Source: a virus (lineage: Duplodnaviria; Heunggongvirae; Uroviricota; Caudoviricetes). From it: a stretch of DNA of 64,000 nt. Below, piece after piece: positions 2,372-31,770 of the stretch. Position numbers and translations under genes: made by a program. Under the pieces are notes generated by a model, which made no database searches, was not told the DNA's origin, and was given only the letters and a program-made list of their open reading frames with translations. Positions within the stretch are counted from its first letter, which is position 1. The number at the start of each line of letters is the position of its first letter. The stretch is taken from positions 1-64,000 of the IMG/VR virus record IMGVR_UViG_2706796742_000001. The stretch is one strand, 5' to 3'.

Positions 2372-3481
2372 ATGACTACTAAAACTAAAGCACAGATTGA
2401 CGCAGAAATCTACAAACTGGTTAAAGAAGGTAAGCTGACTAAAACAGCTATTGCACAGAAGTTCAATACTTCAACCCGTTCAGTTGGTCGTGCTGTAGAG
2501 CGTCATGAAGCAACCTTAAAAGGTAAGAAAAAGGTAGCTTCTAAACCAGCTAAGAAGACTTTGAAGCAAGTTGCTAAGTCAGTTAAAAAGAAAGCTGGCA
2601 AACCAGTTGAAAAGGTTGTTAAAGAGGCTGTACAAAAGGCTCCGGTAAATAAACTACACGAAGCTATGCAGAATGGTGACCGGATTGAGTATATGATTAC
2701 TGGCGATTCTGTTATCATGACTTTCGGTGCAGATTCTGAAATCGTTGAATCTACCCATCCGAACTACAAAGAAATCGTAATGGCTGTTGTAGGTGGTGAG
2801 TACAAGAAAGCTTTCGAACTGATGAACATTCGTAAGTCTATCGAAAACTTCACTCAGGGTGCTATCACAATCAAAGGTGATAAGTTATTCTACGGTGCTG
2901 TTGAAATGCGTTCTACTCTGGTTGACCGTATCCTTCACATGATGAAGACTGGCGATAAAGGTTTTGAACGACTTGTAATGTTCTTCGAAAAACTGATGGA
3001 AAACCCATCTAAAGACTCTGTAGAACAACTTTGGGGGTTTGTATCTCACCTTGATGTTGAAATTGATGAAGAAGGCTACATCATTGGTTGGAAGAAAGTC
3101 TCTACTCGTGAAGGTAAGCTGGTTGACTCCCACACCCACAGAGTACCTAATGATTTGGGTAACATTGTAGAAATGCCACGTTGGATGGTTGATAACAACC
3201 GTAACGTAACTTGTTCTCAAGGTCTTCATGTTGGTGCTTGGGATTATGTTCGTTACTTCTCAGGTGATACCATCCTGAAGGTTCGTGTCCATCCACGAGA
3301 TGTTGTATCTGTTCCAACTGATTACAACGATATGAAGATGCGTTCATCCCGTTATGAAGTTGCAGCAATCGTTGATAATCAACGTAAAGTGCTGAAAGTA
3401 TGGGATGGTAAGACTGAAGCTTTGCATGTCATCGTTGGCACTGCTGGAGAACTCATCTCCCAACGTAAACGTGAAATCTAA
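2372..3481 (+). CDS. putative rIIB-like protein (by position after rIIA-like gene); basic Lys-rich linker
   Basis: 369-aa ORF directly downstream of the rIIA-like ORF; preceded by a TTGACA-N18-TAGAAT element and followed by a hairpin plus T-run. Confidence 0.35.
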   Translation: MTTKTKAQIDAEIYKLVKEGKLTKTAIAQKFNTSTRSVGRAVERHEATLKGKKKVASKPAKKTLKQVAKSVKKKAGKPVEKVVKEAVQKAPVNKLHEAMQNGDRIEYMITGDSVIMTFGADSEIVESTHPNYKEIVMAVVGGEYKKAFELMNIRKSIENFTQGAITIKGDKLFYGAVEMRSTLVDRILHMMKTGDKGFERLVMFFEKLMENPSKDSVEQLWGFVSHLDVEIDEEGYIIGWKKVSTREGKLVDSHTHRVPNDLGNIVEMPRWMVDNNRNVTCSQGLHVGAWDYVRYFSGDTILKVRVHPRDVVSVPTDYNDMKMRSSRYEVAAIVDNQRKVLKVWDGKTEALHVIVGTAGELISQRKREI

Positions 3482-25298: not shown

Positions 25299-26714
25299 AT
25301 GAGCGAATTATTTAAACATGCGCACCTTCATGCAGGTCGAACTGAAAATGGTGCTATAAACCATACTTCACCAATGTCTGCTCTGGTAGACTTCTACAAA
25401 GCCGCTGGCTCAAGCCGTAGCAATGTAGAAATCTTACCAGACCTGTTCTACAAAGCTTTGCGTGAGGATGTTGATGTTGCAGTTCGTATTTTACTGCATA
25501 TGCGAGATGTACGAGAAGGTATGGGTGAGCGTAAAGCTTTCCGAACTGTTTTACTTCAAGCAATTGAAGATAAAGTTTTAGAGCCTACACAGGTTCTTCG
25601 TATTATGGATAAGATTGCAGAACTTGGTCGTTTTGATGACTTCAAAATCTTCGTAGGTACTCGTTTTGAGACAGATGCCTTCAAACATTTAGAAACAGCA
25701 TTACTAGACCCTGCAACAGCAGGTTTAGCAGCTAAGTGGTTACCACGAGTAAAACCACGCCACAAACAGTTTGTAAAACGTTTCTGTAAGTTTGCAAACT
25801 TAAGTGAGAAGGAGTATCGCACACTGTTATCTGCACTGTCTGATACGGTTGAGCAAAAAATCTCTGCTAATGAGTTTGGTAAGATTGACTACAGCAAGAT
25901 TCCTTCACTCGCTGCTGCACGTTACCAAAAACTCTTTAACCGTAAAGATGGGGAACGTTACAAAGCTTACATCGAGTCACTCTCAAAAGGTGAGGCTAAG
26001 ATTAATGCTGGTGCTGTTTACCCATACGATGTGATTAAATCTATTAAATATGGTAATGCAGATGTTGCTAATGAGCAGTGGAAAGCACTACCAAACTGGA
26101 TGGCAGAAGGTGAAAACATCCTGTGTATGACTGATGTTTCAAGCTCAATGTCTTGGGTGAATCTTGGCTCAATCACTGCCCTTGATATTGGTGTATCACT
26201 TGCCTTGTATGTAGCAGAACGCAATACAGGTTGCTTTAAAGATGAGTTAATGGTTTATTCAACAAACCCTCACTTCATCGAACTGAGTGGTGATTTACGA
26301 AACCGTCATCGTCAGGTAATGCGTCATGTTGAATATGGCTCAACTAACTTACAAGCAGCTTTTGACCGCATTCTTGAGACAGGTAAGAGAAACAACTTGA
26401 CTCAGAAAGATATGCCAAGTAAGCTTATCATCTTCTCTGATATGGAGTTTAATCAGGTTGATGGTGCAAATGGTCGTACAAACTTTGAAGCAATTCGTAG
26501 TAAGTACAAAAAAGCTGGATACGAAATGCCACAACTAGTATTCTGGTACTTAGCAAACCGTAATGGTACTTGCGAAGTATCTGTTAAGGATAATGGTGTA
26601 GCAATGGTATCAGGGTTCTCTCCAGCTACTTTAAAAGCTCTGCTTGGTGGTGAGAAGTTTGACCCAATCAGTGTAATGCTCAAAGCAGTAATGATTGACC
26701 GTTACATCTGGTAA
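25299..26714 (+). CDS. vWA-domain protein with alpha-helical N-terminal domain (possible TROVE/Ro60-like or DUF2828-type)
   Basis: MIDAS-like motif CMTDVSSSMS (DxSxS) with downstream Thr and IIFSDMEF acidic motif; preceded by TTGACA-N18-TAAAGT promoter; immediately upstream of tRNA cluster. Confidence 0.5.
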   Translation: MSELFKHAHLHAGRTENGAINHTSPMSALVDFYKAAGSSRSNVEILPDLFYKALREDVDVAVRILLHMRDVREGMGERKAFRTVLLQAIEDKVLEPTQVLRIMDKIAELGRFDDFKIFVGTRFETDAFKHLETALLDPATAGLAAKWLPRVKPRHKQFVKRFCKFANLSEKEYRTLLSALSDTVEQKISANEFGKIDYSKIPSLAAARYQKLFNRKDGERYKAYIESLSKGEAKINAGAVYPYDVIKSIKYGNADVANEQWKALPNWMAEGENILCMTDVSSSMSWVNLGSITALDIGVSLALYVAERNTGCFKDELMVYSTNPHFIELSGDLRNRHRQVMRHVEYGSTNLQAAFDRILETGKRNNLTQKDMPSKLIIFSDMEFNQVDGANGRTNFEAIRSKYKKAGYEMPQLVFWYLANRNGTCEVSVKDNGVAMVSGFSPATLKALLGGEKFDPISVMLKAVMIDRYIW

Positions 26715-26732
26715 AAAGTTTTAAAAAGGGTA

Positions 26733-26761
26733 TTGACAATGTGTTTGATACCCTTTAATAT
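26733..26761 (+). promoter_or_regulatory. strong sigma70-like promoter upstream of tRNA cluster
   Basis: TTGACA-N17-TAATAT preceded by AAAAAGTTTTAAAAAGGG. Confidence 0.6.
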
Positions 26762-26823
26762 GTTCTACATAGAAACGAAATGAGAGCTTTTCTAAGATAC
26801 TGAAAAATATTTTAAAAAAGTTC

Positions 26824-26853
26824 TTGACAACCACTAAAAAATAATGTTAAAGT
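26824..26853 (+). promoter_or_regulatory. second sigma70-like promoter upstream of tRNA cluster
   Basis: TTGACA-N18-TAAAGT, about 27 nt before first tRNA. Confidence 0.5.
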
Positions 26854-26879: not shown

Positions 26880-26956
26880 CTCTGTTTAGCTCAGCTTGGT
26901 AGAGCGTTCCGTTTGGGGCGGTAAGGCCGGAGGTTCAAGTCCTCCAACAGAGACCA
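26880..26956 (+). tRNA. tRNA-Pro (anticodon TGG)
   Basis: Hand-folded cloverleaf: acceptor CTCTGTT/AACAGAG, T-arm GGAGG-TTCAAGT-CCTCC, anticodon loop TTTGGGG, CCA encoded. Confidence 0.6.
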
Positions 26957-26963
26957 AATTAAT

Positions 26964-27040
26964 GTTCCAGTAGACAAAATGGTATAGTCACCACTCTTTC
27001 AAAGTGGATATTTGAGGGTTCAAATCCCTTCTGGAACGCC
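26964..27040 (+). tRNA. tRNA-Glu (anticodon TTC)
   Basis: Acceptor GTTCCAG/CTGGAAC, anticodon stem CCACT/AGTGG, loop CTTTCAA, T-arm GAGGG-TTCAAAT-CCCTT. Confidence 0.65.
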
Positions 27041-27044
27041 AGTT

Positions 27045-27122
27045 TTGACAGAAGACCAATTACAGCAAACTTAATCTTATACATCTGAAGGTAAATCGGA
27101 CAAAGAAGAGATTTGGTCTGGT
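27045..27122 (+). other. conserved inter-tRNA element E1
   Basis: 5' box CAGAAGACCAATTACAGCAAACTTAA and 3' TTTGGTCTGG able to pair with the 5' AGACCAAA; no T-loop. Confidence 0.5.
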
Positions 27123-27131
27123 CATTAAGAA

Positions 27132-27208
27132 TTGCGGGTATAGAGAAAGGGCGTCTCACATGTCTCATTAGCATGGTATCGGCAGGTTCGACTCCTGCAC
27201 CCGCCTCC
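27132..27208 (+). tRNA. tRNA with CAT anticodon (Met, initiator or Ile-lysidine type); 1-72 mismatch
   Basis: T-arm GCAGG-TTCGACT-CCTGC, anticodon stem CATGT/GCATG, loop CTCATTA; U1-C72 unpaired. Confidence 0.45.
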
Positions 27209-27211
27209 AAT

Positions 27212-27277
27212 TTTGCAGAAGACCGTATGCAGCAATAAACTACTTTTTGCGGATAAAAGAAAAAAACACGGTCTGGC
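27212..27277 (+). other. conserved inter-tRNA element E2
   Basis: CAGAAGACCGTATGCAGCAATAAACT ... CGGTCTGG. Confidence 0.5.
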
Positions 27278-27286
27278 AATGTATTA

Positions 27287-27363
27287 AGGTTAGGAAGCAC
27301 ATAAGGTATGTGCGGTCGCCTGTTAAGCGAATGGCACAGGGTTCGAATCCCTGACTAACCGCC
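27287..27363 (+). tRNA. tRNA-Asn (anticodon GTT)
   Basis: D-stem GCAC/GTGC, anticodon loop CTGTTAA, T-arm CAGGG-TTCGAAT-CCCTG. Confidence 0.65.
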
Positions 27364-27432
27364 AAATTTAGGAGAGAAGCGATTGCTCACCGATTTGTAA
27401 GGTGCAAGTCCTTAGCCTGAATAGAAATTAAA

Positions 27433-27520
27433 TGTGTCGTTATCCCGTAGATGGTAGCGGTGGGGACTGTAAATCCCTTGTCATTGAGACTCGGTAGGTT
27501 CGACTCCTACACGGCACACC
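27433..27520 (+). tRNA. tRNA-Tyr (anticodon GTA), long variable arm
   Basis: 88 nt; acceptor GTGTCGT/ACGGCAC, anticodon loop CTGTAAA, T-arm GTAGG-TTCGACT-CCTAC. Confidence 0.6.
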
Positions 27521-27525
27521 AATAA

Positions 27526-27603
27526 AGGCTATGTAGTTTAATAGGGTTAAAATACTCCCCTGTCACGGGAGATGATGTGAGTTCAAGTCTCATCGTAGCC
27601 GCC
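27526..27603 (+). tRNA. tRNA-Asp (anticodon GTC)
   Basis: Anticodon stem CTCCC/GGGAG, loop CTGTCAC, T-arm GTGAG-TTCAAGT-CTCAT. Confidence 0.6.
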
Positions 27604-27635
27604 AATTTTGAGAGGGCTATTTAGCCCCTCCCTTA

Positions 27636-27668
27636 AAGGGTTCTTACGAGTATCCTTTAAAGGGGCAG
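27636..27668 (+). other. conserved hairpin element, copy 1
   Basis: TTAAAGGGTTCTTACGAGTATCCTTTAA (7-bp stem, 14-nt loop). Confidence 0.45.
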
Positions 27669-27741
27669 AAGACCAAATTCAGCAAGTTACTTAAAATTTC
27701 AAGCCAATTCAATTTTGAAAAAATTTAAAACTTGGTCTGGC
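27662..27741 (+). other. conserved inter-tRNA element E3
   Basis: CAGAAGACCAAATTCAGCAAGTTACTTAA ... TTGGTCTGG. Confidence 0.5.
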
Positions 27742-27750
27742 TCAACAAAT

Positions 27751-27835
27751 TTACAGAAGACCGTTTACAGCAAAACTTAAACAATCTATTTCTCGGTAAA
27801 GAAAAGGCGAAGGTTCGATTCCCTCCACTTCTACC
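27751..27835 (+). other. conserved element E4 with tRNA-like 3' half
   Basis: CAGAAGACCGTTTACAGCAAAACTTAA then GAAGG-TTCGATT-CCCTC T-arm-like hairpin and CCA; only 5 acceptor pairs and no convincing D or anticodon arm. Confidence 0.4.
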
Positions 27836-27839
27836 AATA

Positions 27840-27916
27840 TGGTTCAGTCGCAGATAAGGTAATGCAAGGGTTTCATAAGCCCTATGAATGTGGGTTCGAA
27901 TCCCATCTGAACCTCC
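27840..27916 (+). tRNA. tRNA-Met (anticodon CAT)
   Basis: Acceptor GGTTCAG/CTGAACC, anticodon loop TTCATAA with three G-C pairs in stem, T-arm GTGGG-TTCGAAT-CCCAT. Confidence 0.6.
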
Positions 27917-27918
27917 AA

Positions 27919-27993
27919 TTGTGGGTTAGCATAAATGGTAATGCAAACGGCTGATAACCGTTAGAAGAGGGTTCGATACCCTCACCTACAACC
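27919..27993 (+). tRNA. tRNA-Ile (anticodon GAT)
   Basis: Anticodon stem AACGG/CCGTT, loop CTGATAA, T-arm GAGGG-TTCGATA-CCCTC. Confidence 0.65.
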
Positions 27994-28008
27994 AATTTTA
28001 ATAAAGTT

Positions 28009-28037
28009 GTTGACATTGAGATGTGACCACTTTATAG
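28009..28037 (+). promoter_or_regulatory. strong internal sigma70-like promoter in tRNA cluster
   Basis: TTGACA-N17-TATAGT preceded by A/T-rich tract. Confidence 0.6.
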
Positions 28038-28330
28038 TAACTAAAATACTTCATAATATGTATAATTCAAACACCAATACATGAGCATTAGACGTAATGC
28101 AATGTGGGGAAATTTGTTGTACATATTCTGAATAGTTTTCGTTGCGTAGCGTCTATTTTGCAAATTTAAAATAAATGCAAACGACAATGTTTTTCTGGCA
28201 GTAGCTTGATAGGCTAAACACCAGTGAGGTCTTCCAATCCCTCATCAAAGAATTTGGCGTACTAGCCCACGGTATGATTAATAAGGTGGGCATCTTTAAG
28301 GGCTTTCTAAGAGAGTCTTTAAAGATTAAT

Positions 28331-28407
28331 GCACCCTTAGTTCAACTGGACAGAACAAATGACTTCTAATCATTAGGTTACAGGTTCGAATCCTGTAGGG
28401 TGTGCCA
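28331..28407 (+). tRNA. tRNA-Arg (anticodon TCT)
   Basis: D-stem GTTC/GAAC, anticodon stem AATGA/TCATT, loop CTTCTAA, T-arm ACAGG-TTCGAAT-CCTGT. Confidence 0.7.
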
Positions 28408-28549
28408 AATAGTTAGCAGATTGCTTAGACGACCTTATCGGGTCTCCGTGTAGGGAGGTGGTCTGTATCTCATGTTTTCCAGAACATGTAAATAATCTGA
28501 GAAGGGGCTTTACAGTGTTGTGAAAATACGGTAAGCTTCGAATTATAGT

Positions 28550-28632
28550 GTGGGACGATGTTAAGACTCTAAGGCATGAGCAACGGCCTCCAAAACCGTT
28601 TCAAAGTGGTTCAACTCCTCCGTCCCATGCCA
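28550..28632 (+). tRNA. atypical tRNA-like gene, possibly tRNA-Trp (anticodon CCA) with expanded D region
   Basis: 7-bp acceptor GTGGGAC/GTCCCAT plus CCA; candidate loop CTCCAAA; T-arm weak; D region about 7 nt too long. Confidence 0.3.
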
Positions 28633-28645
28633 AAGTCTTATTAGG

Positions 28646-28733
28646 GGTAGGTAGCGGCTAATGGTAGCCAAACAGTCTTGAAAACTGTTGCCACTGTAGA
28701 GATACGGTGAGGGTTCGACTCCTTTACTTACCG
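28646..28733 (+). tRNA. tRNA-Ser (anticodon TGA), long variable arm
   Basis: Anticodon stem ACAGT/ACTGT, loop CTTGAAA, long variable arm, discriminator G; CCA not fully encoded. Confidence 0.6.
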
Positions 28734-28987
28734 CCTAATAAGATTTAGACCGTCATGCTCGCTCGCATTTTCGGTTTATCCCTCGTGTGTTGTCGTACAC
28801 AAGTAAAGCACCTAGTAGGTGTCACGGAGAAGAGATAATATCAAGCTCTCCAAAGGTTCTAGTCACCGGATTAAACAAGACTATGCAAAGACCTATTTAG
28901 GTCTTTTTAGAGAACTTCTAAGGTTATTACAGCTTGTTGTGGAACCTTGTTGCTTAGGTTCTTAGAAGTTCTCTAAAAAGATTTAAT

Positions 28988-29064
28988 GCACCTATAGCCC
29001 AACTGGTAGAGGCAGCAGACTTAGAATCTGCTCAGTGTGAGTTCGAATCTCTCTAGGTGTACCA
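28988..29064 (+). tRNA. tRNA with anticodon TAG (Leu by code) but short variable loop
   Basis: Leu-like D-arm GCC-CAACTGGTAGA-GGC, anticodon stem GCAGA/TCTGC, loop CTTAGAA, 5-nt variable loop, discriminator A. Confidence 0.45.
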
Positions 29065-29071
29065 AATTAAT

Positions 29072-29147
29072 GCAGGTGTAGCAAAATGGTTATGCGGCTG
29101 ACTCTTAATCAGTAAGACGATGGGTTCAATTCCCTCCACCTGTACCA
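29072..29147 (+). tRNA. tRNA-Lys (anticodon CTT)
   Basis: Anticodon stem GCTGA/TCAGT, loop CTCTTAA; T-arm has two mismatches. Confidence 0.5.
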
Positions 29148-29153
29148 GACATT

Positions 29154-29229
29154 GGGGATGTAGTTTACATGGTTAAAACATAAGTTTTGCAAACTTAAGT
29201 ACAGGGTTCAATTCCCTGCTTCTCCACCA
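29154..29229 (+). tRNA. tRNA-Ala (anticodon TGC)
   Basis: G3-U70 wobble pair in acceptor (Ala identity), D-stem GTTT/AAAC, loop TTTGCAA, T-arm CAGGG-TTCAATT-CCCTG. Confidence 0.7.
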
Positions 29230-29235
29230 ATTAGT

Positions 29236-29310
29236 GCATCCATAGTTTAAACGGGAAAATTACAGTCTTCCAAACTGAGGTTGAGGGTTCGATTCCCTCT
29301 GGATGCTCCA
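29236..29310 (+). tRNA. tRNA-Gly (anticodon TCC)
   Basis: Acceptor GCATCCA/TGGATGC, loop CTTCCAA, T-arm GAGGG-TTCGATT-CCCTC. Confidence 0.6.
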
Positions 29311-29317
29311 AATTAAT

Positions 29318-29394
29318 GCTGCTTTCGTATAATTGGCTATTACACATCCATTGTAAGGATGGAAATGCAGGTTCGAGTCCTGTGAGCAGCACCA
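29318..29394 (+). tRNA. tRNA-Thr (anticodon TGT)
   Basis: Anticodon stem CATCC/GGATG, loop ATTGTAA, T-arm GCAGG-TTCGAGT-CCTGT. Confidence 0.65.
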
Positions 29395-29489
29395 ATTCAG
29401 AGGTCAAGTGAAAGACCGCTGGTGTCAACTGAAGACCGTAACAAATTCCACGGAGTTGAGTTAGCGGCACAACTTCAGACCTCTTTCAC
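29395..29489 (+). other. divergent copy E5 of the inter-tRNA element
   Basis: CTGAAGACCGTAACAAATTCCA; flanking inverted repeat CAGAGGTC ... GACCTCT. Confidence 0.35.
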
Positions 29490-29564
29490 ACTCGCTTAGT
29501 TTATATGGTAAAACATCACCCTTACAAGATGAAGAAAAAGGTTCAAGTCCTTTAGTGAGTACCA
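29490..29564 (+). tRNA. tRNA-Val (anticodon TAC)
   Basis: D-stem GTTT/AAAC, loop CTTACAA, T-arm AAAGG-TTCAAGT-CCTTT; one C-A mismatch in anticodon stem. Confidence 0.55.
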
Positions 29565-29565
29565 T

Positions 29566-29643
29566 GTTCCAGTATCCCAATTGGCAGAGGATGCAAGCTC
29601 AAACCTTGTATTAGTGACGGTTCGAATCCGTCTTGGAACACCA
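29566..29643 (+). tRNA. tRNA with anticodon CAA (Leu by code) but short variable loop
   Basis: Leu-like D-arm TCC-CAATTGGCAGA-GGA, anticodon stem GCAAG/CTTGT, loop CTCAAAC, 6-nt variable loop, T-arm GACGG-TTCGAAT-CCGTC. Confidence 0.45.
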
Positions 29644-29659
29644 ATTTTAGGAGAACACT

Positions 29660-29767
29660 ATGAGTGATAAATCAATTGCAAAAAAGTTTATAGCGTCATT
29701 CAAAAATAGGCGTAAAAACAAAGATTGTGAAAATCTGTATGGTGTTCTTGTAGGTAAGCAGGATTAG
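29660..29767 (+). CDS. possible small basic protein (35 aa) inside the tRNA cluster
   Basis: AGGAG RBS 6 nt before ATG; ORF MSDKSIAKKFIASFKNRRKNKDCENLYGVLVGKQD; 3' end overlaps start of a tRNA. Confidence 0.25.
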   Translation: MSDKSIAKKFIASFKNRRKNKDCENLYGVLVGKQD

Positions 29768-29833
29768 TTCAAATGGATAGAGCAGCAGTCTACGAAGCTG
29801 TTAATAGGGGTTCGAATCCCTTATCCTGCGCCA
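29758..29833 (+). tRNA. tRNA-Arg (anticodon ACG)
   Basis: Acceptor GCAGGAT/ATCCTGC, loop CTACGAA, T-arm AGGGG-TTCGAAT-CCCTT. Confidence 0.65.
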
Positions 29834-29852
29834 ATTTAAAGAGGCTATTTAG

Positions 29853-30410
29853 ATGAGATATTTGAAGTATGCTTCATGGATTTTCCTAGCTTTGCTAGAA
29901 CCATTTGCAGCAATCCTAGCAGTCATCTTAGCACCTTTTGTAGTTCCATTCTACAGTGAGAAGAAAGGGCACTTACCTTTCGGCTTCAGATGGATGGAGA
30001 CATATGACAACCCAATTGATGGTGATAAAGGTCATGTTGAACGATGGGCTAAGATTAGAAAGGTTGGTAAGCTTGGTGTCTATATGCAGAGAGTCGGTTG
30101 GCTCTGGAGAAACAAAGCTTATAACTTCTCTTACCATGTGTTAGGAAGAGATGTAAAAGATGTTACTAAGTGGAAAGGTAATATCAATGTAAGTTCTGAC
30201 CCTGAAGATAATCAGACAGGTTATCTCCTAATGTGGAACAGCAATGCTTGGGGATTATTTGCTTTTGTACCATCAATTAAAGTCTTTGGTAAACAGTTTT
30301 ACTGGAGAATTTATATTGGATGGAAACTTAAAAGTGTTGTCCCAGAAGAAAGAGCATTCTCAAGGGAAAGAGTTATGTTGGCATTCTTTATTCATCCACT
30401 AAGAAAATAA
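29853..30410 (+). CDS. membrane protein embedded in tRNA cluster
   Basis: N-terminal hydrophobic stretch WIFLALLEPFAAILAVILAPFVVPF; RBS agagg; flanked by tRNAs. Confidence 0.5.
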   Translation: MRYLKYASWIFLALLEPFAAILAVILAPFVVPFYSEKKGHLPFGFRWMETYDNPIDGDKGHVERWAKIRKVGKLGVYMQRVGWLWRNKAYNFSYHVLGRDVKDVTKWKGNINVSSDPEDNQTGYLLMWNSNAWGLFAFVPSIKVFGKQFYWRIYIGWKLKSVVPEERAFSRERVMLAFFIHPLRK

Positions 30411-30418
30411 AGATTTAA

Positions 30419-30494
30419 AGGGGATTAGTTTACAAGGTTAAAACCTCGGTCTTTGAAATCGAAGAAGTTGGTTCAATTCCAACATCCCCCGCCA
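30419..30494 (+). tRNA. tRNA-Gln (anticodon TTG)
   Basis: D-stem GTTT/AAAC, loop CTTTGAA, T-arm GTTGG-TTCAATT-CCAAC; unpaired 1-72 position. Confidence 0.6.
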
Positions 30495-30496
30495 AT

Positions 30497-30575
30497 GCTC
30501 CATTACTCCAATTGGCAGAGAGGCCAGACTTAAAATCTGTGTTATGTATCGGTTCGAATCCGATATGGAGTACCA
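30497..30575 (+). tRNA. tRNA with anticodon TAA (Leu by code) but short variable loop
   Basis: Leu-like D-arm CTC-CAATTGGCAGA-GAG, loop CTTAAAA, 7-nt variable loop, T-arm ATCGG-TTCGAAT-CCGAT, discriminator A. Confidence 0.45.
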
Positions 30576-30580
30576 AATTT

Positions 30581-30656
30581 AGCGGTATAGCATAACTGGC
30601 AATGCAGCAGTCTCTGAAGCTGTCTTATTAAGGTTCAAATCCTTATGCCGCTGCCA
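30581..30656 (+). tRNA. tRNA-Gln (anticodon CTG)
   Basis: Anticodon stem GCAGT/GCTGT, loop CTCTGAA, T-arm TAAGG-TTCAAAT-CCTTA, weak A1-U72 pair. Confidence 0.6.
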
Positions 30657-30657
30657 C

Positions 30658-30690
30658 TTCTAAGGGTTCTTACGAGAGTCCTTAAATGTG
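30658..30690 (+). other. conserved hairpin element, copy 2
   Basis: CTAAGGGTTCTTACGAGAGTCCTTAAA, same loop core GGGTTCTTACGAG as copy 1. Confidence 0.45.
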
Positions 30691-30763
30691 GCCTTATCAT
30701 AAATGGTAATGACCCATGCTGTGAACATGGTCTATACGGGTTCAAATCCCGTAGGTCACCCCA
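30688..30763 (+). tRNA. tRNA-His (anticodon GTG)
   Basis: Anticodon stem CCATG/CATGG, loop CTGTGAA, T-arm ACGGG-TTCAAAT-CCCGT, discriminator C. Confidence 0.65.
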
Positions 30764-30768
30764 ATTTA

Positions 30769-30843
30769 TAGTCCAAGTAGCTTATATGGTTAAAGCGCGT
30801 GTCTGAAAAACATGAGAAGAGGGTTCAAATCCCACTGGACTAC
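30769..30843 (+). tRNA. tRNA-Phe (anticodon GAA)
   Basis: Acceptor TAGTCCA/TGGACTA, D-stem GCTT/AAGC, anticodon stem CGTGT/ACATG, loop CTGAAAA; two extra nt before D-stem. Confidence 0.5.
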
Positions 30844-30861
30844 CAATTTCAAAGGTGCTTA

Positions 30862-31596
30862 ATGAAAGAGATGACAGAACAAGGTAAGGAGATTTTTAAT
30901 CTCTTAAAAACCGGTAGAGGGTTTTCTAATCCCCTTATTACTGGTGCAGCAGTTCTCGGTGGAACCGTAGCTGCCTCTACATCACTTGTAAGCTCTATTA
31001 GCTCTGTAACAGACCCTACAATAAAGGATAAGCTTATTGCTGCTGGACTTACAACAGTTCTACTTAGCAGCTTTACAACGAGTCTGACAAGCACTACATC
31101 AACCACTAAAACACTGACAGATTACGGTCAAAAGTCCATTGATGAGTTTTCATCACGTATGCAGGTAGCAAAAGGATATTCTAATGCTATGGGTGCAGCA
31201 GGAGAGCAAGTCGGTTGTACACCTTTTAGTGGTATTATGGGTGTTGCTACAGAATATGGTCAAAAAGCTATTGACACAATTAACAGTGCACTAGATAGTG
31301 TTAACGGTGTGTTAAGTGACTTACAGGATGCTATTGACGAAGGTCTTGATACTATTTCTGATTTAGCTAACCAAGCTGTTAGCAAGATTAATGAAGGTAT
31401 CTCGAAGATTACAGCTTATGCAGACGAAGTTGTGCAGATGATTGAAGAAGAAGCTGCCCTTATTGCAGAGTACCTTAAAACGAATATCAATGGGTTCTTA
31501 GCAGGTATCTTACCAGACTGGTTTGATGATGCTTGTAAAACTGGTGTAATTGACACTATTGCAACACCAGAAATGAAGAACGCATTACAGAAATAA
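30862..31596 (+). CDS. hypothetical Ser/Thr-rich protein
   Basis: Start moved from track ATG 30799 (which overlaps a tRNA) to in-frame ATG at 30862 with aaagg RBS. Confidence 0.45.
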   Translation: MKEMTEQGKEIFNLLKTGRGFSNPLITGAAVLGGTVAASTSLVSSISSVTDPTIKDKLIAAGLTTVLLSSFTTSLTSTTSTTKTLTDYGQKSIDEFSSRMQVAKGYSNAMGAAGEQVGCTPFSGIMGVATEYGQKAIDTINSALDSVNGVLSDLQDAIDEGLDTISDLANQAVSKINEGISKITAYADEVVQMIEEEAALIAEYLKTNINGFLAGILPDWFDDACKTGVIDTIATPEMKNALQK

Positions 31597-31597
31597 T

Positions 31598-31690
31598 GGA
31601 AGATTAACCCTAAAAGGTAAGGGAGCAGTTTGCTAAACTGCCAGTAGCTGAGAAATCGGTGTACCAGTTCAAGTCTGGTATCTTCCTCCA
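31598..31690 (+). tRNA. tRNA-Ser (anticodon GCT), long variable arm
   Basis: 93 nt; acceptor GGAAGAT/ATCTTCC, anticodon stem GCAGT/ACTGC, loop TTGCTAA, T-arm ACCAG-TTCAAGT-CTGGT, CCA encoded. Confidence 0.55.
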
Positions 31691-31694
31691 ATTT

Positions 31695-31770
31695 GAATCC
31701 GTGACAGAAATGGCTATGTGCCTGTCTGCAAAACAGGTTTATAAGGGTTCGAGTCCCTTCGGATTCTCCA
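31695..31770 (+). tRNA. tRNA-Cys (anticodon GCA)
   Basis: Acceptor GAATCCG/CGGATTC, anticodon stem CCTGT/ACAGG, loop CTGCAAA, T-arm AAGGG-TTCGAGT-CCCTT, discriminator T. Confidence 0.65.

Follow-up and report, generated by a model that had tools for sequence, protein, structure and literature searches.

Which products are encoded by the parts of a phage transfer RNA (tRNA) cluster that contain no tRNA genes? The question is raised by a locus in the IMG/VR virus record IMGVR_UViG_2706796742_000001 (Caudoviricetes), of which positions 1–64,000 (hereafter the window) were analysed. ARAGORN identifies in the window a cluster of 25 tRNA genes on the plus strand (26880–31770), and the segment 27900–29100 is 90–96% identical to Felix O1-like phages of Escherichia coli and Salmonella (Felixounavirus, Ounavirinae). 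In a preliminary description of this DNA two gaps in the cluster had been proposed to be co-transcribed with tRNAs and possibly to encode small RNAs, the first of them located downstream of a strong promoter between the genes for tRNA-Ile (27920–27994) and tRNA-Arg (28331–28407). For the first gap the proposal is now strongly supported by a conserved covarying fold, by a template similar to that of transfer-messenger RNA (tmRNA, encoded by ssrA) and by an arm antisense to ssrA. We conclude that the gap RNA is a relative of the messenger RNA (mRNA)-like domain of tmRNA, devoid of the tRNA-like domain and fused to an ssrA-antisense arm. Together with SmpB, tmRNA constitutes the universal bacterial system for ribosome rescue and protein tagging, which also influences the growth of lambdoid/P22-type hybrid phages.

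The relationship to tmRNA is apparent in a short open reading frame (ORF) that begins with a GCA codon. It reads GCA AAC GAC AAU GUU UUU CUG GCA GUA GCU UGA UAG and thus encodes ANDNVFLAVA followed by two stops, whereas its counterpart in E. coli ssrA, the sequence of which was checked, reads GCA AAC GAC GAA AAC UAC GCU UUA GCA GCU UAA UAA and encodes ANDENYALAA, the tag named for E. coli tmRNA (PMC2481249). Around the resume codon 15 of 18 nucleotides are identical to ssrA 80–98. The homologues that we collected comprise 72 unique element sequences with 31 distinct tag-region DNAs; 47 non-redundant sequences were included in the alignment (A2), in which the string AUAAAU|GCA AAC GA is invariant. 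Every one of the 72 unique sequences contains exactly ten codons before the stop. The encoded tags (ANDDVVLMAA, ANEEMYLAVA, ANDNVFLAVA, ANEERFLMAA, ANDDQFLAVA and others) conform to the pattern AN[DE]xx[FYV]L[AMI][VAS]A, and the copy in the Chaseviridae phage SKA49 encodes ANDSEMRVAA. Synonymous variants (GTT/GTA/GTC, TTT/TTC, GCT/GCC/GCG, AAC/AAT, GAT/GAC) occur among the templates. Direct reading revealed that the GCA frame lacks a start codon and is closed by a stop only a few codons 5′ of the template. The alignment shows no variation at positions −5 to −2 (U A A A). In tmRNA, A86 (position −4) is the key determinant of frame selection, and both A86 and U85 are important (PMC2481249); the invariance of U-5, A-4, A-3 and A-2, matching the functionally critical A86, was taken as support for the template reading. 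Judged by its sequence, the phage ORF with its upstream context is a copy of the tmRNA resume site.

Profile searches, performed with Rfam at the gathering score and at E≤10, pointed in the same direction. Below threshold, the tmRNA family RF00023 matched 28141–28330 (15.2 bits, E=0.004, against a gathering score of 47 bits), and RF04321 matched 27937–28209 with 23.4 bits against 47, a match that extends over tRNA-Ile and the promoter. The homologues score 11–13 bits in such sub-threshold searches; repeated weak matches fall on tmRNA families only, those to the two-piece tmRNA models being located on the template. A micro-ORF in the alternative AUG(−2) frame was considered and rejected: its length is 5, 7 or 9 codons or it stays open, and synonymous changes in the GCA frame introduce premature stops into it.

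The core of the element consists of the 5′ arm, a hairpin (P1), the template, a helix 5 and two pseudoknots (Table 1). Only the hairpin is found upstream of the template, where pseudoknot 1 (PK1) of tmRNA is missing; downstream are two covarying H-type pseudoknots. The preliminary description had called for a covariation analysis against related phages, and nine pairs with compensatory changes were found among the 47 aligned homologues. The count covered five helices, namely those of the helix-5-like hairpin, both stems of pseudoknot A and stem 1 of pseudoknot B. Standard pairs occupied 95.9% of the cells, compared with 27–45% in controls in which the 3′ partners were slid by 1–3 columns; 124 cells were changed on both sides (shuffled mean 41.7), and the slid controls contained 0–2 pairs with changes on both sides against the nine observed. 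The closing pair of the helix-5-like hairpin is A-U in 23 sequences and G-C in 23, while one of its inner pairs is U-A in 23 and C-G in 13. The two helices of pseudoknot A are 100% and 99.5% paired and contain five of the pairs with changes on both sides (UGAGG/CCUCA versus CAAGG/CCUUG; CCAA/UUGG versus CCAG/CUGG versus CCGA/UCGG). In stem 1 of pseudoknot B, C-G alternates with U-A at one pair and with G-C and U-A at another. Its stem 2 varies in both length and sequence with complementarity preserved (GCCC/GGGC, GCCCAC/GTGGGC, GCCCTGA/TCAGGGC, ATCC/GGAT, TCCCTGA/TCAGGGA, GACGGGAG/CTCCCGTC and GCCCCG/CGGGGC). Given the covariation of helices and pseudoknots, the region 28132–28291 is a genuine structured RNA. 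The Vi01-type copies have an insertion in the loop of pseudoknot B, CUAAAAAUAGACG (locus L002, 1594–1606; locus L011, 1601–1610), that repeats in sense orientation the ssrA tract immediately 5′ of the resume codon (CAAAAAAUAGUCG).

The second link to tmRNA is provided by the 5′ arm. The consensus of this domain, AUAGUUUUCGU-(AA)-GCGAC-UUUGCGG-UUUUUA, is a same-order reverse complement of E. coli ssrA UAAAAAGCCGCAAA...GUCGC...ACGAAAACUA (nt 68–107), a region that takes in the PK1 loop, the PK1 3′ strand, the A-rich linker, the resume codon (G90) and codons 2–6. RNAduplex predicts 24 bp and −27.2 kcal/mol between the arm in the window and ssrA 76–107. The Smith-Waterman score of this arm against antisense ssrA is 31, a value reached by none of 500 shuffles. 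For all 47 arms the alignment to antisense ssrA lies within nt 59–107, and 44 of them beat all 500 shuffles; we regard alignment score and target position as more informative than duplex energy. The possibility that the arm is instead a homologue of the ssrA 5′ region (GGAUUCGACGGGAUUUGCG) was dropped, the antisense match being far better and the score against the sense strand of ssrA equalling the shuffle mean. The mean duplex energy is −24.2 kcal/mol for arm and ssrA versus −12.9 kcal/mol for the arm and its own downstream region.

Of the 47 aligned homologues, 46 have GUUUUCG at the 5′ end of the arm, whereas codons 4–6 of the phage template vary; UAGUUUU (28133–28139) is unpaired in the predicted fold of the free RNA and matches host codons 4–6. 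By direct reading, the variants of the GCGAC block (GCGAU, GCGGC, GUGAC) still pair with ssrA GUCGC through wobble pairs, and the longer linkers of some lineages (CACGUUA, GACGUUAA) add CGUU, which is complementary to ssrA AAACG. Cofolding with full-length ssrA is favourable by 7–16 kcal/mol; in the predicted complex the arm moves to ssrA and the RNA's own −6 to +2 region opens. At the level of sequence, the arm thus displays extended and conserved complementarity to a defined host RNA.

Several properties of the gap itself agree with the preliminary description. It had been reported to contain no recognisable tRNA, and ARAGORN found neither a tRNA nor a tmRNA between tRNA-Ile and tRNA-Arg; Rfam at the gathering score identified no family in the gap and only tRNAs in the window, and the sub-threshold Rfam search revealed no overlooked tRNA in the gap. 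Nor does the gap contain an ORF of at least 60 codons, the largest (48 and 46 aa) being both on the minus strand, and a conserved ORF with a start codon was found on neither strand. The gap folds with −83 kcal/mol (z = −5.5), which none of 200 shuffles equalled. The strong promoter ahead of the gap was likewise borne out, with 11 of 12 consensus positions, except that its coordinates (given as 28009–28037) were off by one base. It is the top-scoring site in a 7.5-kb scan, in which promoter-like sites are overall no more frequent than expected (17 versus 17.3), and is a member of a thrice-repeated promoter block (26713, 26804 and 27990; repeat family D8). Erwinia, Shigella and siphovirus homologues likewise have a TTGACA promoter immediately ahead of the element, and in many Felixounavirus relatives without the leader the same −10 hexamer lies 8 nt ahead of TAGTTTTCG / UAGUUUUCG. 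From the promoter and its conservation we infer that the first gap is transcribed, yielding a putative RNA of ~286 nt including the leader, ~160 nt of which would be the conserved core. The A/T-rich upstream block and TTGACA are common to three promoters of the tRNA cluster (26713–26739, 26804–26830 and 27990–28016), two of which are at the head of the cluster; this suggests that one promoter class drives the cluster in segments.

Table 1. Features of the two gaps in the tRNA cluster (window coordinates).
Feature	Position	Strand	Description
Sigma-70-type promoter	28010–28038	+	TTGACA-17-TATAGT; 11/12 consensus positions; predicted start near 28045
Optional leader hairpin module, 89 nt	28050–28132	+	outer stem AATATGTATAA/TTGTACATATT, inner hairpin GCATTA-GACG-TAATGC; predicted fold
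5′ arm	28132–28162	+	AUAGUUUUCGUUGCGUAGCGUCUAUUUUGCA; collinear antisense to E. coli ssrA nt 76–107
'Closed' hairpin P1 and extension	28140–28189	+	predicted; the last two-thirds of the arm pair with the −10 to +13 region of the same RNA, around the resume codon (minimum free energy and centroid folds)
tmRNA-like template	28171–28212	+	upstream AUAAAU (U-5, A-4); resume GCA 28177; ORF 28177–28206; stops TGA TAG 28207–28212
Helix-5-like hairpin	28195–28224	+	CUGG...CCAG, inner UAGC/GCUA; stop codons in or near the loop
Pseudoknot A	28225–28257	+	stem 1 UGAGG/CCUCA; loop CCAA pairs with downstream UUGG
Pseudoknot B	28258–28291	+	stem 1 CGUAC/GUAUG; loop GCCCAC pairs with GUGGGC past conserved UGAUUAAUAA
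3′ hairpin, ~16 bp	28292–28326	+	predicted fold; tRNA-Arg(UCU) at 28331 begins 4 nt later
Second non-tRNA gap	28737–28985	+	near-invariant centre ~28805–28910; terminator-like hairpin AAAGACC..GGUCUUUUU; then long inverted-repeat hairpin 28909–28974

The hairpins that flank the core in the window are variable companions. The leader module is present in Felix O1 and missing in many Felixounaviruses, where matches cover 73% of the query in two pieces; in SKA49 both of its stems display compensatory changes (CCTTC/GAAGG; AATTTGTACA/TGTACAAATT). A related order of hairpin followed by tRNA is found in Sf18 and in the Erwinia phage Pistou.

The element is widespread. Sensitive BLAST searches with 27995–28330 matched 613 phage records, and beyond Ounavirinae the segment 28168–28292 is 72–87% identical to unannotated DNA of unrelated phage families. 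Matches were found in Ackermannviridae (Vi01), Schitoviridae (the N4-like FSL SP-076), Jedunavirus, Swiduovirus, Buchananvirus, Sashavirus, Roufvirus (Aeromonas) and the 108-kb phage Cyrano, and the element is also carried by Chaseviridae (phage SKA49) and by phage HK620; T4-like phages were not among the BLAST matches listed. In each phage locus that was fetched, the element is on the same strand as the tRNAs and adjoins tRNA genes. Among 5,426 complete E. coli genomes, 329 contain the element, in 97 chromosomal and 237 plasmid places. In the two chromosomal cases inspected the element lies in a late-operon leader of a lambdoid prophage, with the Q antiterminator gene on one side, the holin gene on the other and no adjacent tRNAs. 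The element is further present on 754 plasmids of ~100–120 kb from Klebsiella, Escherichia, Enterobacter, Salmonella, Yersinia (including Y. pestis) and Citrobacter, which may be phage-plasmids. The plasmid copies represent the Cyrano-type variant, and the plasmids are mostly non-mobilizable (e.g. NZ_CP045259.1 of Yersinia pestis, 100,984 bp). A gapped-pattern search added three species genomes and 69 metagenome contigs. A scan of IMG/VR with ATAAATGCAAAYGA-N9-YTG returned 28 loci, all of them chance matches inside unrelated coding sequence, and the element seems to be absent from the collection as scanned. No RNA annotation covers the element in the records inspected, in which it is either left unannotated or overlaid by a 'hypothetical protein'. 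One matching record, GU169904.1, is labelled Staphylococcus phage SA1 (147 kb) and contains Felix O1-like tRNA-cluster DNA at 92–97% identity; it is probably chimeric or contaminated.

What might such an RNA do? The ORF looks as if selected for translation although a start codon and a tRNA-like domain are both missing; it would therefore be most economical to suppose that host alanyl-tmRNA-SmpB brings the ribosome, which then resumes on the phage template. We consider it quite possible that the RNA binds to the tmRNA of the host, hiding the host template and presenting its own instead. Before binding, the arm would for the most part be closed on the RNA's own resume region, with UAGUUUU left single-stranded; as modelled, the geometry of the arm would be that of a toehold switch. 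The UAGUUUU toehold would bind host tmRNA codons 4–6 (GAA AAC UAC), GAAAACUAC, after which the arm could leave the phage resume region by strand exchange for the identical host GCAAACGA and the tract upstream of it. The duplex would then reach across the resume codon of the host tmRNA, its A-rich linker and the 3′ strand of its PK1, so that the host template would be masked and the phage AUAAAU-GCA resume site freed beside the host PK1. Ribosomes rescued by host alanyl-tmRNA-SmpB would read the phage tag (ANDNVFLAVA in the window) rather than ANDENYALAA. Tagging for proteolysis would be re-coded, or at least disabled, while ribosome rescue would go on. The 3′ end of the RNA would probably be generated by RNase P cleavage at the downstream tRNA-Arg. 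Only tentatively do we propose this scheme in its full form, a toehold-mediated template swap in trans by which host alanyl-tmRNA-SmpB would append a phage tag such as ANDNVFLAVA, ANDDVVLMAA or ANEEMYLAVA.

A number of points weigh against such a scheme, of which everything beyond the arm–ssrA complementarity is inferred. The duplex energies beat those of shuffled sequences only modestly (z = −1.1 to −5.5). Owing to the homology between the RNA's own resume region and ssrA, the arm closes on itself and is in part complementary to ssrA; much of the arm–ssrA complementarity (−14 to +8) would thus also follow from selection for the intramolecular hairpin, and the strictly host-specific part of the arm amounts to ~7–10 nt, namely UAGUUUU and 2–3 positions of GCGAC. 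The tag of Salmonella ssrA, which we take to be ANDETYALAA, would give one mismatch or bulge in the toehold. The arm–ssrA duplex would have to disrupt stem 2 of PK1, and we know of no precedent for a ribosome resuming on a template that is held in trans on tmRNA. Finally, siphoviruses, lambdoid prophages and Vi01-likes possess a tRNA-like domain 3′ of the core, a hint of a self-contained system.

The complementarity of the arm to ssrA 68–107 would equally suit a plain inhibitor or decoy of tmRNA, an explanation that we regard as doubtful. The arm would simply block the host template, or the tmRNA-like part would titrate S1, SmpB or RNase R; the ORF would never be translated and its conservation would reflect mimicry and structure only. 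There is a precedent in a tmRNA fragment, since the tRNA-like domain alone has been reported to inhibit tmRNA (PMC4131195). Codons 7–10 are, moreover, inside the covarying helix-5-like hairpin, so that part of the apparently synonymous variation is explained by covariation of the stem. However, inhibition would require no more than the antisense arm, and what has been preserved goes well beyond it: the ten codons, the stops, the A-4 context and the chemistry of the tag (N-terminal AND/ANE, a hydrophobic residue at position 6, L7 and a C-terminal A) are kept in all 72 unique sequences. Codons 4–6, which are outside the hairpin, change freely yet always in frame, and synonymous GTT/GTA/GTC (codon 5) and TTT/TTC (codon 6) occur outside any helix.

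The 3′ tRNA-like domains of some homologues raise another possibility, that of an unconventional self-contained or split tmRNA, the acceptor of which would be provided in cis or by the phage, as the 3′ tRNA-like domain or, in Ounavirinae, as another piece of the tRNA cluster. The core continues, in the siphovirus, lambdoid prophage and Vi01-like copies, into conserved 'module' hairpins (GGUAAGAGCA...UGCUCUUUCC) and a tRNA-like cloverleaf (locus L004, ~1725–1810; L005, ~1725–1855; L040 and L041, ~3225–3320; L002, ~1800–1935). The cloverleaves possess an acceptor-like stem (GUUGUGGUG/CACCACAAC), a covarying D-like hairpin (GCGCA/UGCGC versus AGUAC/GUACU) and a degenerate T-arm-like hairpin, and CCA is encoded in some; the Vi01 type has GGGTTCGACTCCC and then AACGGC-U-CCA. 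The long module helix that connects the core with this domain recalls helix 2 of two-piece tmRNAs, and the window itself contains an odd tRNA-like element at 28551–28633. Nevertheless, we consider a split tmRNA unlikely. The core in the window has no adjoining tRNA-like domain, and neither ARAGORN (searching for tmRNA of any kind, including permuted) nor Rfam detected one at the core or elsewhere in the 64 kb. In the N4-like SP076 an intrinsic terminator comes right after the core. The cloverleaves are not called by tRNA finders, and direct reading identified the alanine identity pair G3:U70 in none of the tRNA-like domains, in any register tried. In leaderless relatives and in other lineages the promoter lies directly upstream of the arm, so that no 5′ acceptor strand can precede it; with both acceptor strands 3′ of the template, RNase P would detach the tRNA-like domain. 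A split tmRNA would also leave the ssrA-antisense arm unexplained.

Two further candidates for tmRNA parts in these loci were examined. The sequence TGTGGTG in the promoter spacer of some siphoviruses was rejected as a 5′ acceptor strand, as it is missing in other lineages and located upstream of the predicted start. The only 'tmRNA' called by ARAGORN, in locus L004 (1616–1990; tag AKAVRLRKCSFRCGECAG), was judged spurious, since it shares its 3′ end with the tRNA-Met next to it; the program missed the real tmRNA-like template, which lies 100 nt further upstream. The module hairpins (..CAACAGGTAAGAGCA...TGCTCTTTCCGTTGTG..) flank the core in lambdoid prophages and siphoviruses (L040, 2865–2955 and 3118–3225; L041, 2870–2945 and 3118–3230; L005, 1622–1735; L118, ~250–315). 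Their apical inserts are swapped between elements, one of them (CCCTTATGGGGCTTGGCTTAAATGCA) being common to Felix O1 and an E. coli prophage. We read modules and cloverleaves as interchangeable accessory or 3′-processing modules.

A tmRNA-derived RNA that does not pair with host tmRNA at all might serve as a processing or stability element of the tRNA operon, or as a regulator with a self-closing arm. The predicted fold, in which the arm pairs with the RNA's own resume region, would fit this role, as would the constant association with tRNA genes and the habit of travelling with variable hairpin modules. Such a role is nonetheless improbable in our view: UAGUUUU, which is conserved more strongly than the rest of the arm, stays unpaired in the self-fold and fits host codons 4–6 instead of the variable codons of the phage, and the lambdoid copies are in late-operon leaders that have no tRNAs next to them. 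That the gap is a decaying captured ssrA fragment, an ordinary spacer or a minus-strand gene for a small protein (46 aa, 28153–28293), as the 'hypothetical protein' annotated over the element in some phage records and the coincidence of this ORF with the conserved stretch in the window might indicate, is highly improbable in view of the compensatory changes, the conservation across unrelated virus families, the promoter kept directly upstream in several lineages and the absence of the ORF, or its reduction to <20 aa, in 30 of 48 homologues; for this lack of conservation the ORF was rejected as a gene.

Returning to the tmRNA-derived RNA that would swap templates with its host, its resemblance to known systems is partial in each case. 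With bacterial tmRNA (RF00023, clan CL00001) the phage RNA shares a start-less tag ORF that begins with GCA AAC GA and follows an A-rich tract containing U-5 and A-4, a tag of ten codons that belongs to the AND...LAA type, and stop(s) in a helix-5-like hairpin followed by H-type pseudoknots. Unlike bacterial tmRNA, it has no acceptor stem, G3:U70, T-arm or CCA, contains a hairpin in place of PK1 and two downstream pseudoknots instead of three, is much shorter (core ~160 nt versus 363 nt) and scores 15 rather than 47 bits, and carries an arm antisense to ssrA itself. Genes derived from tmRNA are known in phages, such as those of the mycobacteriophages Bxz1, Catera and others and of Bacillus phage G, and the fragment in DS6A. 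In the 2014 survey behind the tmRNA Website, phage ssrA was limited to mycobacteriophages and Bacillus phage G, plus the tRNA-like-domain fragment of DS6A, a partial tmRNA kept by the phage and proposed to inhibit host tmRNA (PMC4131195). Those phage tmRNAs are complete and detectable with ARAGORN or Rfam or, in DS6A, consist of the tRNA-like domain only, whereas the RNA in the window is the complementary fragment (template and pseudoknots) with an antisense arm, found in phages and plasmids of Enterobacterales. In the two-piece tmRNAs of alpha- and betaproteobacteria and cyanobacteria (RF01849, RF01850, RF04321) the template is likewise apart from the 3′ acceptor piece, to which it is joined by base-pairing. 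However, these derive from one permuted gene, the coding piece of which supplies the 5′ acceptor strand, while the window contains no acceptor piece and the phage arm targets the template region of a one-piece host tmRNA.

Other parallels are found among phage RNAs that are not tmRNAs. The prophage anti-small RNAs AgvB and AsxR of enterohaemorrhagic E. coli reportedly sponge Hfq-dependent small RNAs (Tree et al. 2014). They too are phage or prophage RNAs that lie downstream of Q in lambdoid prophages and pair with host non-coding RNA, combining antisense and mimicry; the target of the present RNA would, in contrast, be tmRNA, and it carries a translatable-looking replacement template in addition. 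The tRNA cluster of T4 encodes two stable non-tRNA RNAs, species 1 and 2 (rnaC/rnaD), which are presumably released by tRNA-processing enzymes. They resemble the gap RNA in being non-tRNA RNAs embedded in a phage tRNA operon and, to our knowledge, have not been linked to tmRNA.

No prior description of the element was found in the literature on phage, viral or antisense tmRNA, our coverage of which was incomplete, and genome announcements, including those of a Felixounavirus and a Kuttervirus phage, report no tmRNAs. The element itself is a tmRNA-derived RNA, and the template swap in trans, if true, would be categorically new: it would represent the first natural case of tmRNA re-coded by a separate RNA. 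Its carriers would include Felix O1-, Vi01-, N4- and HK620-type phages, lambdoid prophages and ~750 plasmids, Yersinia pestis records among them, so that many phages, prophages and plasmids of Enterobacterales would possess a direct RNA-level handle on tmRNA-SmpB. A plaque assay with lambda-immP22 scores tmRNA function (PMC2481249). The element would also add a new kind of tmRNA relative, missed by ARAGORN, Rfam and PGAP, and could account for some of the non-tRNA sequence in phage tRNA clusters that is so far unexplained.

The second gap, with its long inverted repeat, had also been proposed as a small-RNA candidate. The repeat is real, with arms at 28909–28923 and 28954–28974 that form an extended hairpin, although its right arm had been misquoted by one base (GCTTAGGTTCTTAGAAGTTCTCT, not CCTTAGG). 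The candidacy itself is less strongly supported than that of the first gap. The gap is structured (z = −4.5; none of 200 shuffles folds as well) and its centre is near-invariant among Felixounavirus, Suspvirus and Mooglevirus. On the other hand, all 252 matching records are of the Ounavirinae type, the core of the gap has no similarity to E. coli genomes, and an alignment of four sequences from four genera contains a single compensatory pair, which is in the inverted repeat. Plausibly, the second gap encodes another small RNA.

The spacers of the cluster contain further recurrent elements. The motif ACAGAAGACC-N5-CAGCAA is present in four copies (27041–27068, 27208–27235, 27658–27685 and 27746–27773), three of which are followed 50–70 nt downstream by a GGTCTGG partner with co-varying flanks (CCAA/TTGG versus CCGT/ACGG); this suggests a repeated spacer hairpin. 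Directly past the fourth copy is a lone 3′ half of a tRNA (27806–27838), consisting of T-arm, acceptor 3′ strand and CCA (GGCGAAGGTTCGATTCCCTCCACTTCTACCA), which appears to be a tRNA remnant. The tRNA-like element at 28551–28633 possesses an acceptor (GTGGGAC/GTCCCAT, G, CCA), the T-loop GGTTCAACTCC and an anticodon-like stem (AACGG/CCGTT) closing a loop of 9 nt in which CCA occurs. It was called neither by ARAGORN nor by RF00005, and the tRNA-Sec model matched it with 21 bits (E=1). The cluster in which it lies is otherwise missing tRNA-Trp. The 5′ part of this element resembles the leader of the tmRNA-like RNA (repeat family D16).

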